Sequence record: OL615012
Reading direction: 5' to 3' (one strand)
Source: Shigella phage vB_SboM_Phaginator
DNA: 64,000 bases
Made by a program: the position numbers and the translations under genes. Shown one piece after another: positions 49,446-55,783 of the stretch (position 1 is the stretch's first letter; each line of letters opens with the position of its first letter). A model generated the notes under the pieces. The model ran no database searches. It was not told where the DNA came from and saw only the letters and a program-made list of their open reading frames with translations.

Positions 49446-49480
49446 AGGGAGCCTTCGGGTTCCCTTTTTCTTTATAAATA
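49446..49480 (+). promoter_or_regulatory. Terminator hairpin after gene 35 followed by late promoter TATAAATA for gene 36
   Basis: Hairpin gggagcc-ttcg-ggttccc plus T-run, immediately followed by TATAAATA at 49473-49480. Confidence 0.55.
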
Positions 49481-49503: not shown

Positions 49504-50163
49504 ATGGCTGATTTAAAAGTAGGTTCAACAACTGGAGGCTCTGTCATTTGGCATCAAGGAAATTTTCCATTGAATCCAGCCGGTGACGATGTACTCTATA
49601 AATCATTTAAAATATATTCAGAATATAATAAACCACAAGCTGCTGATAACGATTTCGTTTCTAAAGCTAATGGCGGTATTTATCTAAACCGAGTTACCTT
49701 TAACAAGGGTATTCAAGTCCCGGGAGCTGGCAATGGTCTGACCGGGATGTTTGTTGGGCCAGGTGATGGAGCAACTTATGATAATGTTAACCTTGATATA
49801 ATATCTTGGTATGGTATCGGATTTAAATCATCTCAAGGAACAGGACCCAGGACAATTGTTTTTAACGTTCGTGACGGTGAAATTTCGGCCCGTGGTAATA
49901 TAAATTCACAGCGTCAGGTGCGAGCCGAAGCCGCAGCGCCCATTGCCGCAAATGACCTTACTAGAAAGGACTATGTTGATGGAGCAATAAATACTGTTAC
50001 AGCAAATGCGAACTCTAGGGTGCTACGATCTGGTGACACCATGACAGGTAATTTAACAGCGCCAAACTTTTTCTCGCAGAATCCTGCATCTCAACCTTCA
50101 CATGTTCCACGATTTGACCAAATCGTAATTAAGGATTCTGTTCAAGATTTCGGCTATTATTAA
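49504..50163 (+). CDS. 36: Long tail fibre distal connector gp36
   Basis: 219 aa; late promoter TATAAATA upstream. Confidence 0.9.
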   Translation: MADLKVGSTTGGSVIWHQGNFPLNPAGDDVLYKSFKIYSEYNKPQAADNDFVSKANGGIYLNRVTFNKGIQVPGAGNGLTGMFVGPGDGATYDNVNLDIISWYGIGFKSSQGTGPRTIVFNVRDGEISARGNINSQRQVRAEAAAPIAANDLTRKDYVDGAINTVTANANSRVLRSGDTMTGNLTAPNFFSQNPASQPSHVPRFDQIVIKDSVQDFGYY

Positions 50164-50171
50164 GAGGACTT

Positions 50172-53100
50172 ATGGCTACTTTAAAACAAATACAATTTAA
50201 AAGAAGCAAAACCGCAGGTGCACGTCCTGCTGCTTCAGTATTAGCCGAAGGTGAATTGGCTATAAACTTAAAAGATAGAACAATTTTTACTAAAGATGAT
50301 ACAGGAAATATCATTGATCTAGGTATTGCTAAAGGCGGTCAAATTGATGGAAATGTAACTATTGATGGAACTTTACGCGTCAATGGACCAATAAACAACT
50401 TTGGAAATTTTTCTACAAGTGGTACTATTACGGCAAGTAATATTGTTTCTGCTACAGTATTCAGATCAACATCCGGTTCATTTTATACAAGAGCAATAAA
50501 TGATACTGCAAATGCCCATCTTTGGTTTGAAAATACGAATGGATCGGAGAGAGGGGTTTTATATTCAAAACCACAGTCTGAAAATGAAGGCGTAATTACA
50601 ATGCGCGTTCGCCAAGGAACCGCAGCAGGGGCTCAAAATTCAGAATTTCATTTCATTTCTACTGATGGCGGTATCTTCCAGGCACGCAAATTAACTGCTT
50701 TAACTTCTATTAGTACACCAACTATTAGTGTTAATTTAATTAATCATGATTCTAAAGCCTTTGGACAATACGATTCACAATCATTAGTTCAGTATGTTTA
50801 TCCTGGAACCGGTGAAACAAATGGTGTAAACTATCTTCGTAAAGTTCGAGCTAAATCAGGTGGAACTATTTACCATGAAATTTGTACAGCTCAGACTGGG
50901 CTAGCTGATGAAGTTTCTTGGTGGACTGGTAATATACCGTTATTTAAACTATACGGTATTCGTAACGACGGTAGAATGATTATCCGCAATAGCTTGGCCA
51001 TTGGTACTGTGACTGAAGGATACCCGTCAAGCGATTATGGAAATACCGGGGTAATGGGAGATAGGTATTTAGCTCTTGGCGATAATGCTTCTGGACTTAA
51101 ATGGGTTCGTACTGGCGTTATTGACTTAATGGCTAACGGTATTTCTGCGGCGACTATTATTAATAATGGTATTAATAGTACTAAAAAATTGATGGTTGGT
51201 TATAGTCGAGATTCTGGTTCTACTTGGGATTTCCCAAATAACAACCAAGCAATGTTTACTGCGCGTACCGATGTTGATGGTAATAATAACGGTGATGGTC
51301 AAACTCATATCGGTTATAGCAGTAATTCTAAAATGTATCACTATTTCCGTGGTACAGGTCGTATGTCCGTTAGTATGGGCGATGGACTTCTTGTTGAACC
51401 GGGTATTTTAGACATTAAAACTGGTTCAAATACATTAAGTTTGCGTGCTGATGGTACCGTCGCTTCTGTTCAAACATTAAAGCTTAATAATGGATTGTAT
51501 TTTAATGGTGATGGAACTAATGCTTCTCTAGTTTTTAAAGCAGCTTCAGGTGTTGATGGTACTAAGCAAATTATGTGGGAAGGTGGTACTCGCCCAGGGC
51601 AGAATAAAAGCTACGTAACTGTTAAAGCATGGGGTAATTCATTTAACGCATCTGGTGATCGTAATCGTGAAACAGTCTTTGAAGTATCAGATGGGCAAGG
51701 TTACCATTTTTATTCTCAACGCGTAGCTCCTGCACCTGGTTCGACTGTCGGGCCTATTCAACTCCGAGTTAATGGTGGTTTATTAACTTCAGGTAGTATT
51801 GTTGCTTCTGGTTCTATTACAACCGAATCAAGCTTAGTTGCAAATAATGGATTATCTGTAAATGGACAAGCTAAATTTGGTGGAACAGCAGATGCATTAA
51901 GAATTTGGAATGCTGAATATGGCGCTATTTTCCGTCGTTCAGAAAGTAGTCTTTATATTATCCCGACTCCTAAAGGTGCCGGAGAATCGGGCGGTATAAG
52001 TAATCTTAGACCATTGATAATAGAACTGAACACTGGCACAGTTAAAATGTCGCATGATGTTCATTTAGGAGATTCTGGATCTGGTACAGGATTATTACAA
52101 GTAAGTAATAGTCTTAAAACTATTAAAATGATATGTCCAGTAACTATTAATGAACGCAATGCAGCACTTACCCTGGATTCTCCTTCATCTTCTTCTGCTA
52201 ATTATTTACAGGGTTCTAAAGCTGGAACTAGATCATGGTACGTTGGTCTTGGCGGCGCTGGAAATGATTTATCTCTTTATAGCCAATCTTATGGACATGG
52301 TCTTGTTATAAGCGATAATTTCGTGTCAATCAGTAAACCTCTTAAAGTTGGAAATGCCCAACTAGGAACTGATGGTAATATTACTAGCGGTTCAGGAAAC
52401 TTTGCCAACTTGAACACCACGCTAAACCGTAAAGTTAATTCTGGATTTATTACTTATGGAGCAACCGCTGGATGGTATAAGTTTGCAACAGTAACAATGC
52501 CACAATCCACTTCGACGGTCTTCTTTAAAATAGCCGGTGGTTCTGGATTTAATAGCGGATTATTCACACAATGCAATATTGCTGAAATTGTTTTACGTAC
52601 TAGTAATGAAAGACCTGCTGACTTAAATGCTGTATTATATACAAGAACATCTGGACTGTATAGCGCAGCATTTAGAAATATTGCAGTTAACAATGTCTCT
52701 GGAAATACATATGACATTTATGTTTATGCCGGAACATATTGTAATCAACTAGCGTGTGAATGGTCATGTACCGAAAATGCTACTGTTAGCGTTATTGGTA
52801 TTAACTCATCTACACAATCACCTGTAGATGCTCTTCCAGATACAGCAGTTAACGGTCAAGTTGCTAATGTTCTTAATAACTTGGTTGATCGTGGTAAAGC
52901 AAAACGTTATGTAGCAGAATCTGAAATTGCTATTAATAACCAAACGGGTCTTCGTATTACGAGTAATTCTGATAAATCTGGTTCAAATTCAGTATTATTC
53001 AGAAATGACGGTGGAAGCTTCTATATTTTACTGACCGACAAAAACTCTTCAGACGGCGATAATAAAGCAACTGAAGGTGATTGGAATGGAAAACGACCAT

Positions 53101-53999
53101 TTTCAATTGATATGACTGCTGGTACTGTTCGTCTTGGCGAAAATACTTCTTTTAGTAAAGATGTTACTATTGATGGAAACATTAATTCACGAGTTAAAGT
53201 TGTCGGACAGTGGAATGTTAGCTTTTCTGATATTTCAGATGTGACTCGTGACCGTTCTGCATTTTTAGTGAATACAGGCGGCATTTCCAAGACAAGTCAA
53301 TCTTATTACCCACTATTTTCTGGATACAGTTTTTTAACTGACACGGGTTATCGCCAATCGTTTGAATTTGGATGGTTAGGTGTTTCTGGTACTTGGCGTC
53401 AAGGCATTATTCGCATGCGTGGTGACAAGCCATCGGGGCAACAGGCTCGTTGGACTTTTGATATGGACGGAACATTTTATGCTCCTAAATTGGCTTGCGG
53501 TTCTACCGGTGCCCTTGGTATTAACACATCCAACGGATGGGGTGGTAACTCAATTGCAATAGGTGATAGCGATACCGGTTTTAGACAAGTAGGTGATGGG
53601 CTTTTAGAAGCGTGGGCTAACAATGTTAAAGTTGTTAGATTCACCTCGGGTGAAGTTTATTCCGAGAAAAACGTCAACGCTCCTAACGTTTATATTCGTT
53701 CTGATATTCGTTTGAAATCTAATTTCAAGCCTATTGAAAACGCGCTCGAAAAGGTTGAACAACTTGATGGTTTAATCTATGACAAAGCTGAATATATAGG
53801 CGGTGAGCCTGTTCAAACTGAAGCGGGTATTATAGCTCAAACGTTACAAGACGTTTTACCAGAAGCTGTCCATGAAACAGAAGACAGTAAGGGTAATAAA
53901 ATACTCACTGTTTCTTCTCAAGCTCAGATTGCTCTTCTGGTTGAAGCTGTGAAAACACTTTCCGCTCGTGTAAAAGAACTTGAATCTAAACTTATGTAA
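50172..53999 (+). CDS. 37: Long tail fibre distal subunit gp37 (T2-type, with C-terminal chaperone-like domain)
   Basis: 1275 aa; N-terminus MATLKQIQFKRSKTAGARPAASVLAEGELAINLKDRTIFTKDD… is T-even gp37-like; C-terminus carries …SDIRLK… and a coiled-coil end. Confidence 0.9.
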   Translation: MATLKQIQFKRSKTAGARPAASVLAEGELAINLKDRTIFTKDDTGNIIDLGIAKGGQIDGNVTIDGTLRVNGPINNFGNFSTSGTITASNIVSATVFRSTSGSFYTRAINDTANAHLWFENTNGSERGVLYSKPQSENEGVITMRVRQGTAAGAQNSEFHFISTDGGIFQARKLTALTSISTPTISVNLINHDSKAFGQYDSQSLVQYVYPGTGETNGVNYLRKVRAKSGGTIYHEICTAQTGLADEVSWWTGNIPLFKLYGIRNDGRMIIRNSLAIGTVTEGYPSSDYGNTGVMGDRYLALGDNASGLKWVRTGVIDLMANGISAATIINNGINSTKKLMVGYSRDSGSTWDFPNNNQAMFTARTDVDGNNNGDGQTHIGYSSNSKMYHYFRGTGRMSVSMGDGLLVEPGILDIKTGSNTLSLRADGTVASVQTLKLNNGLYFNGDGTNASLVFKAASGVDGTKQIMWEGGTRPGQNKSYVTVKAWGNSFNASGDRNRETVFEVSDGQGYHFYSQRVAPAPGSTVGPIQLRVNGGLLTSGSIVASGSITTESSLVANNGLSVNGQAKFGGTADALRIWNAEYGAIFRRSESSLYIIPTPKGAGESGGISNLRPLIIELNTGTVKMSHDVHLGDSGSGTGLLQVSNSLKTIKMICPVTINERNAALTLDSPSSSSANYLQGSKAGTRSWYVGLGGAGNDLSLYSQSYGHGLVISDNFVSISKPLKVGNAQLGTDGNITSGSGNFANLNTTLNRKVNSGFITYGATAGWYKFATVTMPQSTSTVFFKIAGGSGFNSGLFTQCNIAEIVLRTSNERPADLNAVLYTRTSGLYSAAFRNIAVNNVSGNTYDIYVYAGTYCNQLACEWSCTENATVSVIGINSSTQSPVDALPDTAVNGQVANVLNNLVDRGKAKRYVAESEIAINNQTGLRITSNSDKSGSNSVLFRNDGGSFYILLTDKNSSDGDNKATEGDWNGKRPFSIDMTAGTVRLGENTSFSKDVTIDGNINSRVKVVGQWNVSFSDISDVTRDRSAFLVNTGGISKTSQSYYPLFSGYSFLTDTGYRQSFEFGWLGVSGTWRQGIIRMRGDKPSGQQARWTFDMDGTFYAPKLACGSTGALGINTSNGWGGNSIAIGDSDTGFRQVGDGLLEAWANNVKVVRFTSGEVYSEKNVNAPNVYIRSDIRLKSNFKPIENALEKVEQLDGLIYDKAEYIGGEPVQTEAGIIAQTLQDVLPEAVHETEDSKGNKILTVSSQAQIALLVEAVKTLSARVKELESKLM

Positions 54000-54029
54000 A
54001 AGAGGGCTTCGGCCCTCTAAGGATTTTTA

Positions 54030-54821
54030 ATGGCAATTGTAGGTGTTCCTGGCTGGATTGGTGAATCTGCCGTGAATGAAACTGGACAACGCTGGATGGA
54101 TGCTGCGATGAAAGCTGTTCGTGTTTCAGTTCCCGGTTGGATGAGTTCAATGGCTGGGCAATCTAAAGAAGTATATTATAGCATTGGTGCTAGCAATTCT
54201 TACAATAAAGACACACTAATAAATTGGATAAAAGCCCAAGGAAGTACTCCTGTTGTTATTACTATTACAGGAAATATTGTTTCTCAATCTACTGGTGTTC
54301 CATGCTTAGATTTTCCTAGCTCATTAACTAATGCGTATGTTACCTTAAATATTAATAGCGGGGTTCATGTATTGGGTCGGGGAGGAAATGGCGGAAGTAA
54401 CTCTGCTGGTGGAGCAGGAGGAACTGCAATAAATAACGGAATTGGAACTCGTTTAAGAATAAACAATAACGGTATTATTGGTGGCGGTGGCGGTGGCGGT
54501 GCTGGTGCTAGATACCATCCTTTCCCTCAAATGGATATGATATTTGGTGGAGGCGGAGGTCGTCCATTTGGCGCAGCTGGCGCAGCAGGAGGTGGCGCAG
54601 CAGCAGCATCTGCTGGTACAATTTCTGCTCCTGGTAAAGGTACTGTTTCTGGGGTTCACTATGGAGGAAATGGTGGAGATTTGGGAGCTGCTGGCAAGTC
54701 TTCATATATTCAAGGCGGTACTGGAGGAACTGTTCACTCGGGCGGTGCGGCTGGTAAAGCTGTTACTGGTAATGCTCCAACTTGGACTAAAGTTGGCACA
54801 ATATATGGTTCAAGAGTATAA
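54030..54821 (+). CDS. 38: Receptor-recognising adhesin gp38 (T2-type, glycine-rich motifs)
   Basis: 263 aa; conserved N-terminus MAIVGVPGWIGESAVNETGQRWMDAAMKA…; C-terminal half has poly-Gly runs (GGGGGGAGA, GGGGGRPFG) separated by variable segments. Confidence 0.85.
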   Translation: MAIVGVPGWIGESAVNETGQRWMDAAMKAVRVSVPGWMSSMAGQSKEVYYSIGASNSYNKDTLINWIKAQGSTPVVITITGNIVSQSTGVPCLDFPSSLTNAYVTLNINSGVHVLGRGGNGGSNSAGGAGGTAINNGIGTRLRINNNGIIGGGGGGGAGARYHPFPQMDMIFGGGGGRPFGAAGAAGGGAAAASAGTISAPGKGTVSGVHYGGNGGDLGAAGKSSYIQGGTGGTVHSGGAAGKAVTGNAPTWTKVGTIYGSRV

Positions 54822-54853
54822 TTTTTGAATAAATATCCTTAAAAGGAGGGTCT

Positions 54854-55510
54854 ATGGCAGCACCTAGAATATCATTTTCGCCCTCTGATATTCTATTTGG
54901 TGTTCTAGATCGCTTGTTCAAAGATAACGCTACCGGGAAAGTTCTTGCTTCCCGGGTAGCTGTCGTAATTCTTTTATTTATGATGGCGATTGTTTGGTAT
55001 AGGGGAGATAGTTTCTTTGAGTACTATAAGCAATCAAAGTATGAAACATACAGTGAAATTATTGAAAAGGAAAGAAATGCACGCTTTGAATCTGTCGCCC
55101 TGGAACAACTCCAGATAGTTCATATATCATCTGAGGCAGACTTTAGTGCGGTGTATTCTTTCCGCCCTAAAAACTTAAACTATTTTGTTGATATTATAGC
55201 ATACGAAGGAAAATTACCTTCAACAATAAGTGAAAAATCACTTGGAGGATATCCTGTTGATAAAACTATGGATGAATATACAGTTCATTTAAATGGACGT
55301 CATTATTATTCCAACTCAAAATTTGCTTTTTTACCAACTAAAAAGCCTACTCCCGAAATAAATTACATGTACAGTTGTCCATATTTCAATTTGGATAATA
55401 TCTATGCTGGAACAATAACCATGTACTGGTATAGAAATGATCATATAAGTAATGACCGCCTTGAATCAATATGTGCTCAGGCGGCCAGAATATTAGGAAG
55501 GGCTAAATAA
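54854..55510 (+). CDS. t: Holin T
   Basis: 218 aa, MAAPRISFSPSDILFGVLDRLFKDNATGKVLASRVAVVILLFMMAIVWY…; one TMD plus large periplasmic domain. Confidence 0.95.
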   Translation: MAAPRISFSPSDILFGVLDRLFKDNATGKVLASRVAVVILLFMMAIVWYRGDSFFEYYKQSKYETYSEIIEKERNARFESVALEQLQIVHISSEADFSAVYSFRPKNLNYFVDIIAYEGKLPSTISEKSLGGYPVDKTMDEYTVHLNGRHYYSNSKFAFLPTKKPTPEINYMYSCPYFNLDNIYAGTITMYWYRNDHISNDRLESICAQAARILGRAK

Positions 55511-55783
55511 TTATTTGTTCGTATACATCTCTAGATATCGATATACACCCTCAAAACCCTCGTTGAATTCGTCGATGAGGGTTTTTTTATCTTCTTGAGT
55601 TAATTCAGAAACAATTTTACGGAATGAATTCTGATTTAATTTTCTACCTTCATGCGTTACTCCAATCTCATTCAGAAATGCAATAAAATTAGCACGATTC
55701 TCAACAATATCTTCTCTGGAAAATTTAATCAAAATAGACGCAACAGTAATAATTTCACGAACTGTATCAATGTTTTTATTCAT
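55511..55783 (-). CDS. asiA: Anti-sigma-70 factor AsiA
   Basis: 90 aa, MNKNIDTVREIITVASILIKFSREDIVENRANFIAFLNEIG…. Confidence 0.95.
   Translation of the reverse strand: MNKNIDTVREIITVASILIKFSREDIVENRANFIAFLNEIGVTHEGRKLNQNSFRKIVSELTQEDKKTLIDEFNEGFEGVYRYLEMYTNK

Follow-up and report, generated by a model that had tools for sequence, protein, structure and literature searches.

The stretch of DNA analysed here (the window, 64,000 nucleotides, record OL615012) comes from Shigella phage vB_SboM_Phaginator, a Tequatrovirus (PMC9686686). Gene 38 (g38) lies in the long-tail-fibre region of the window, within a locus made up of the following genes and signals, with positions counted from the first letter of the window.

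49473..49480, + strand: T4-type late promoter motif TATAAATA, 5' of gene 36, from a motif search
49504..50163: gene 36 (Pfam Phage_T4_gp36)
50172..53999, + strand: gene 37, distal long-tail-fibre subunit, 1275 aa (Pfam gp37_trimer, Gp34_trimer and Peptidase_S74)
53700..53996, + strand: aa 1177-1275 of gp37, C-terminal intramolecular chaperone (Peptidase_S74), starting at SDIRLK
54001..54018, + strand: hairpin with a 7-bp GC-rich stem and a UUCG tetraloop, located after the g37 stop codon and before the g38 ribosome-binding site
54030..54821, + strand: gene 38, T2/S16-type long-tail-fibre tip adhesin, 263 aa (ORF, Pfam, PDB 6f45_D and UGO46917.1)
54854..55510, + strand: gene t, holin (Pfam Phage_holin_T, 2e-117)

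The gene order g36-g37-g38-t is the same in T2, T6 and T4, and since the conserved holin gene t lies directly downstream of g38, the locus has the canonical g37-g38-t arrangement. The g38 reading frame begins with ATG and includes its TAA stop codon within 54030..54821 (+). A Shine-Dalgarno sequence, AAGGA, is located at 54019-54023, 6 nt 5' of the ATG.

The motif TATAAATA at 49473 is likely to be the start of a late transcript covering g36-g37-g38 and possibly t. Counted over the 64-kb window, copies of this motif do not exceed the chance expectation (11 found, 9 expected); the late-promoter assignment was therefore made from position only, and by position alone the copies taken as meaningful are those just 5' of g34 and g36. 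For the hairpin in the g37-g38 gap, the predicted fold is no stronger than in shuffled versions (z -0.64), and no role is assigned to it. Between 53500 and 55700, sigma-70-like promoters (8 found, 6.2 expected) and terminator-like matches (3 found, 1.8 expected) both occurred at chance level, and tRNA and Rfam scans of the whole 64-kb window gave nothing at threshold. A 14-bp stem followed by a T-run was noted at 55553-55585 (+), just 3' of the holin gene and inside an ORF at 55511-55783 (-) that occupies the position of asiA in T2 and T4. This terminator-like element could end the late g36-g38-t transcript.

The exact 263-aa protein is present in GenBank as UGO46917.1, the 'putative receptor recognition protein' of vB_SboM_Phaginator, and its 90%-identity cluster has 81 members. 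At the nucleotide level, g38 was found at 95-99% identity in 17 records of the phage collection, and a tblastn search against phages gave 12 records with at least 99% and 22 with 95-99% protein identity. The low-complexity filter of tblastn masks the glycine-rich half of gp38, such that most of its matches cover only aa 1-114. This search was therefore unusable for comparing specificity domains, and fetched loci aligned with MAFFT were used instead. Near-identical genes are variously annotated in the records, as 'distal long tail fiber assembly catalyst', 'tail assembly protein', 'hypothetical protein' or 'tail fiber protein'.

Family membership and predicted fold of gp38

Two Pfam families account for nearly the whole protein: Gp38_N (PF21721) was matched by aa 1-42 (7e-18, 64.7 bits against a cut-off of 25) and GP38 (PF05268) by aa 47-263 (3e-69, 233.7 bits, also against a cut-off of 25). 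Among the sequences of solved structures, matches were obtained to the receptor recognition protein of Salmonella phage S16 (6f45_D; gp38 aa 8-261, 1.5e-48) and to the receptor-binding domain of PP01 gp38 (9v85; 4.5e-32). An AlphaFold2 (AF2) model built on 82 homologues had a mean pLDDT of 93 and a pTM of 0.86, with no segment of three or more residues below pLDDT 50. In a Foldseek search of the PDB this model recovered the same two proteins (6f45_D, E 2e-22, TM 0.78/0.82; 9v85_C, TM 0.72/0.84), and apart from them it had no match below E=5. The homology to S16 and PP01 gp38 is full-length, at about 40% identity and with the same predicted fold; both of these adhesins recognize OmpC, with loops that show no relationship to the present ones.

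T4 gp38 shares its gene number and its place between g37 and t with the present protein, but its sequence is unrelated. BLASTP gave no similarity between the two proteins (best E=13, over 19 residues), and T4 gp38 has no Pfam family in common with gp38. The lengths differ too, and both had been correctly given in the sequence-only reading: 263 aa for gp38, from the ORF listing, and about 183 aa for T4 gp38, the fetched control being 183 aa. The T4 protein assists fibre assembly and does not act in host recognition (PMC6851490).

The protein could be divided into three parts on the basis of these comparisons.

54030..54167, + strand: gp38 aa 1-46, N-terminal attachment domain, predicted by homology to dock on the gp37 trimer (Gp38_N, AF2 helices)
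54168..54374, + strand: gp38 aa 47-115, beginning of the central beta-helix domain (AF2 strands, homology to 6F45_D and 9V85)
54375..54770, + strand: gp38 aa 116-247, glycine-rich specificity domain, predicted polyglycine-II sandwich (conservation map of 82 homologues)

Three helices (residues 10-18, 23-29 and 38-41) are predicted by AF2 in the N-terminus, which also carries the attachment tryptophans W9, W22 and W37, invariant in eight relatives. In S16 gp38, three tryptophans anchor the adhesin in the gp37 trimer (PMC6851490). The strands of aa 47-115 are predicted with pLDDT values of 95-98. In the AF2 model, DSSP assigns hardly any helix or strand to residues 116-133 and 174-232, and the pLDDT of their 10-residue blocks is 91-98, a combination that fits polyglycine-II (PGII) helices. 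The fold of gp38 is thus predicted to be a beta-helix with a PGII sandwich.

The Pfam matches, the homology to S16 and PP01, the AF2 model, the tryptophans and the lack of similarity to T4 gp38 together support membership of gp38 in the T2/S16-type adhesin family and place it outside the T4-type chaperone family. The T2/T6-type adhesin architecture proposed in the sequence-only reading was thus borne out, both Pfam families, the S16/PP01 homology and the superposition of the model (TM 0.72-0.84) being in agreement. The conserved N-terminus that was also claimed needs to be restricted: aa 1-46 are indeed conserved, with 96% identity to T2, 96-100% to T2 and close relatives and 65% to T6, but aa 47-115 are not, identity to T6 in this part being 33%. 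Over the whole protein, gp38 is only 55% identical to the Tsx-specific gp38 of T6, the genetic model adhesin of Trojet et al. (2011), with which it shares family, architecture and predicted receptor.

The adhesin form of gp38 is predominant among T-even phages (PMC3157838; PMC6851490). The g38 described here is an ordinary and already known gene of this kind, in an arrangement that is the most common and the best described among T-even phages, and its architecture, its structure, the role of its variable loops and the receptor of the same allele have all been published.

Glycine motifs and variable loops of the specificity domain

Full-length gp38 homologues (82 sequences, 50-97% identity) were aligned with MAFFT and the entropy of each column was computed. 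The conserved glycine motifs in this alignment are GRGGNG (aa 116-121), GGGGGGGA (aa 151-158), GGGGGRPFG (aa 173-181), GNGGDLGAAG (aa 213-222) and GGAAGKAVTG (aa 238-247), the last of which is followed by a conserved C-terminal tail. Many of the motif glycines are invariant or nearly so across the 82 homologues. Three poly-glycine strings had been quoted from the letters, and all three are present in the protein. The first, GGGGGGGAGA (aa 151-160), has seven G and not six as written. The second is the conserved GGGGGRPFG; the third, GAAGAAGGGAAAAS (aa 181-194), is not a conserved motif but consists mostly of a variable loop (loop C below). The motifs GRGGNG, GNGGDLGAAG and GGAAGKAVTG were missed, leaving the quoted list incomplete.

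Five peaks of entropy were found, at aa 122-127, 160-172, 184-194, 203-212 and 222-237. In the alignment these coincide with the receptor loops A-E defined by the crystal structure of PP01 gp38 (PMC12892980), and in the nomenclature of Trojet et al. they lie within HVS1, HVS2, HVS3 (two loops) and HVS4 (PMC3157838).

54393..54410, + strand: loop A, aa 122-127, GSNSAG; entropy peak, aligned to PP01 loop A (W119-I124)
54504..54545, + strand: loop B / HVS2, aa 159-172, GARYHPFPQMDMIF; highest entropy in the family (2.77 bits), contains Q167 and M168
54579..54611, + strand: loop C, first part of HVS3, aa 184-194, GAAGGGAAAAS; mean entropy 2.28 bits, among the most variable segments in the family
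54636..54665, + strand: loop D, second part of HVS3, aa 203-212, KGTVSGVHYG; entropy 2.53 bits, contains G208
54693..54740, + strand: loop E / HVS4, aa 222-237, GKSSYIQGGTGGTVHS; entropy 2.03 bits

The sequence-only reading had named alignment with T2, T6 and other adhesins as the way to map the hypervariable segments, and the family alignment resolves them into these five loops. Its view of the variable segments as the likely determinants of host range is upheld by the position of the family entropy peaks at the PP01 receptor loops, and it is also the published view (PMC3157838, PMC12032242, 10.64898/2026.04.02.716166). Exchange of a 400-bp HVS region, with swaps involving RB5 and RB32, transfers receptor specificity (PMC3157838). 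A phage changes its receptor from Tsx to OmpA when the distal half of its gp38 is replaced, and the evidence from relatives that gp38 chooses the receptor includes a CM8/EV240 gp38 swap (10.64898/2026.04.02.716166).

Receptor prediction

The same allele of gp38, at 99.2-99.6% protein identity, is carried by the Escherichia phages AV109, AV114 and AV115 (Mosigvirus), which have a single gp38 sequence between them, and by Bas43, vB_Eco_T-01, Kha5h, RB18 and slur07 (Tequatrovirus). The locus order g37-g38-t in this group of phages is also that found here. Over aa 116-263, gp38 is 100% identical to the proteins of AV114 and T-01 and 99.3% identical to that of Bas43. The substitutions that set it apart are I52V for vB_Eco_T-01, I52V with Q228K for Bas43 (TadeuszReichstein), and V48I with Y49H, both N-terminal, for AV114; none of I52V, V48I and Y49H lies in a loop. 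The only difference from Bas43 in the specificity domain, Q228K, falls in loop E.

Infection of E. coli ECOR4 by AV114 and AV115 requires Tsx, infectivity being lost on tsx mutants (PMC10844046), and the primary receptor of Bas43 in K-12 is Tsx (PMC8594841, supplementary table). Since aa 116-263 are identical to those of AV114/AV115 gp38 and 99.3% identical to those of Bas43, all of which depend on Tsx, it is highly probable that the receptor of this allele is the outer-membrane protein Tsx, a nucleoside channel. Single loop substitutions can switch the receptor of a gp38 adhesin, as with Q206L, which changes OmpF to OmpW (10.64898/2026.04.02.716166). What makes the prediction safe, therefore, is solely the identity of the specificity domain to its AV114 counterpart.

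Comparison of the loops with those of other receptor classes gave a mixed picture. Loop B is 50-57% identical to the Tsx users Bas39 and T6, against 7% to T2 and 21% to Bas45, and loop D is 40-50% identical to T6-type Tsx binders; for B and D together, identity to T2 (FadL) and Bas45 (OmpA) is 7-29%. Loops B and D are related to those of T6 (PFPQM in B, G-[VI]-x-Y in D), whereas loops C and E are unrelated (18-25%). Both of the latter loops are specific to this allele: loop C is only 8-18% identical to T6, T2, Bas39 and Bas45, and the identity of loop E to other types lies between 18 and 31%. Both have an unusual Ala/Gly-rich composition (AAGGGAAAAS in C and SSYIQGGTGGTV in E) that occurs in no other receptor class compared.

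The label 'T2-type' given in the sequence-only reading is apt for the architecture and for the N-terminus but not for specificity. The T2 adhesin (FadL/OmpF) has a 96% identical attachment domain, and the C-terminus and chaperone domain of T2 gp37 are nearly identical to those here, but its loops B-E are only 7-18% identical (loop A, 57%), so that a receptor other than that of T2 is expected. The specificity half of gp38 as a whole is closer to T6 (61.5%) than to T2 (52.0%).

A tip adhesin that uses a receptor other than Tsx, or additional to it, on the natural host (OmpA, OmpF, FadL, OmpC or an LPS element) is the alternative that survives best. One to three substitutions can change receptor choice in the gp38 family, and PST is a near-T6 allele: three substitutions separate the two, at specificity positions 167, 168 and 208, and the PST changes extend the T6-type specificity, so that PST uses OmpA as well as Tsx (PMC3157838). 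In loops C and E the allele does not resemble T6-type Tsx binders, so its mode of Tsx binding need not be theirs, and the identical protein comes from a phage of Shigella boydii. Against this, gp38 keeps the T6 state at Q167, M168 and G208, with the PST-type changes absent. Its whole specificity domain is, moreover, that of AV114/AV115 and is one residue away from that of Bas43, phages that were Tsx-dependent in two E. coli backgrounds (ECOR4 and K-12). A receptor other than or additional to Tsx is accordingly improbable, and Tsx is retained as the predicted primary receptor. On Shigella, where Tsx use is putative, the O-antigen may make additional factors necessary.

Bas45, which uses OmpA, has loops C and E in common with T6 and Bas39 and differs from them in loops B and D. 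This suggests, as a hypothesis drawn from loop comparison, that loops B and D carry most of the discrimination between Tsx and OmpA. More tentatively, and with appreciable doubt, the present allele might be a second, structurally distinct solution to Tsx binding, in which B and D are the core determinants and C and E are tuning loops. If so, loops C and E would be free to tune binding to Tsx variants, or to a second surface feature, on Shigella or pathogenic E. coli, and the movement of the cassette between Tequatrovirus and Mosigvirus would fit that of a selectively favoured module.

These results raise no new question and are of value as annotation only, in that Tsx can be predicted as the primary receptor from the sequence. 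Such a prediction is of use when cocktails are put together from phages that differ in receptor, and it makes loss of tsx the likely route to resistance.

The gp37 partner and exchange of the g38 cassette

The fibre subunit on which gp38 would sit carries a chaperone domain of its own. A Peptidase_S74 match (1e-14) covers aa 1177-1234 of gp37, and the motif SDIRLK, at which this C-terminal piece starts, is conserved in T2, T6, Bas43 and AV114. The tip of gp37 is S16-like: over its last ~150 residues it shows homology (2.7e-9) to the S16 gp37 fragment 6f45_A, which was crystallized with gp38. Based on what is known of the Peptidase_S74 family, the C-terminal 99-residue piece is probably removed by autocleavage, exposing the docking surface for gp38, and these 99 residues are likely to be the chaperone at this locus. 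T4 gp37 differs in having Collar and Phage_fiber domains without Peptidase_S74, and in carrying the receptor-binding tip itself. The description 'instead of a T4-type assembly chaperone' in the sequence-only reading fits a locus in which gp38 has no homology to T4 gp38 and gp37 provides its own Peptidase_S74 domain.

In the middle of gp37 (~51090-52360), alignment with Bas43 and AV114, the closest relatives, is poor or fails altogether. The length of gp37 is 1275 aa here, against 1312, 1286 and 1257 aa in relatives and 994 aa in T6, whose distal region is unlike that of the present protein. With differing lengths and a poorly aligning central part, the fibre shaft is mosaic as well.

These observations are combined in the following model. 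The monomeric adhesin gp38 would be made late, probably from the g36-g37-g38 transcript, while gp37 would fold with the help of its C-terminal intramolecular chaperone, which would then be cut off. The three-helix N-terminal domain of gp38, with W9, W22 and W37, would then dock at the far tip of the gp37 trimer. The beta-helix would carry a PGII sandwich made of the conserved glycine motifs. Loops A-E, at the far end of this sandwich, would bind a host outer-membrane protein, here most probably Tsx, and reversible binding of the long fibres would lead to baseplate rearrangement and infection. We assign a very high probability to this explanation as a whole, that is, a tip adhesin on gp37 with a PGII sandwich and five loops, Tsx as the most probable receptor, and no T4-type chaperone at the locus.

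Were gp38 only an assembly chaperone for gp37, as T4 gp38 is, it would be absent from virions. The record names 'distal long tail fiber assembly catalyst' and 'tail assembly protein' given to near-identical genes are in favour of such a role; however, these are legacy annotations, T4 gp38 names wrongly transferred to an unrelated adhesin. Neither similarity (E=13) nor a Pfam family connects gp38 with T4 gp38, its sequence and predicted structure match an S16 adhesin that was crystallized in complex with the gp37 tip (PMC6851490), and gp37 has a chaperone domain of its own. In addition, T6 g38 amber mutants with truncated gp38 give virions that look normal but have lost adsorption (PMC3157838). 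A role as chaperone only is therefore extremely improbable, and we infer that gp38, as a tip adhesin, is present in the virion.

The glycine content of gp38 is 33.8% in aa 116-263 compared with 9.6% in aa 1-115, and the Gly and Ala codons (GGN and GCN) raise the GC fraction to 0.50-0.53 at 54400-54830, against 0.29-0.38 in the flanks. The same codon composition produces stop-free overlapping ORFs on both strands within g38, and the ORFs at 54453-54659 (-), 54508-54705 (-) and 54544-54828 (+) were rejected as genes, being by-products of GGN/GCN codon runs. Biased composition, spurious ORFs and short direct repeats might be taken to mean that the glycine-rich half is low-complexity sequence, or part of a decaying gene, without specific function, but this reading has virtually no probability left and is refuted by the intact ORF, the glycine motifs invariant across 82 homologues, an AF2 model that is confident throughout, and the identity of the domain to functional alleles of infective, characterized phages.

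The tip adhesin also appears to be a mobile unit. Nucleotide identity to the Mosigvirus AV114 is 93-98% only at ~53800-54830, a segment comprising the end of the gp37 chaperone domain and all of g38, and drops to 63-86% on both sides of it. This points to a recent exchange of the g38 cassette across two genera, Tequatrovirus and Mosigvirus. Adhesins are already known from the literature to move as cassettes among T-even genera, and the present case is a further example. Candidate sites for such exchange are short direct repeats in the DNA coding for the gp38 glycine motifs.
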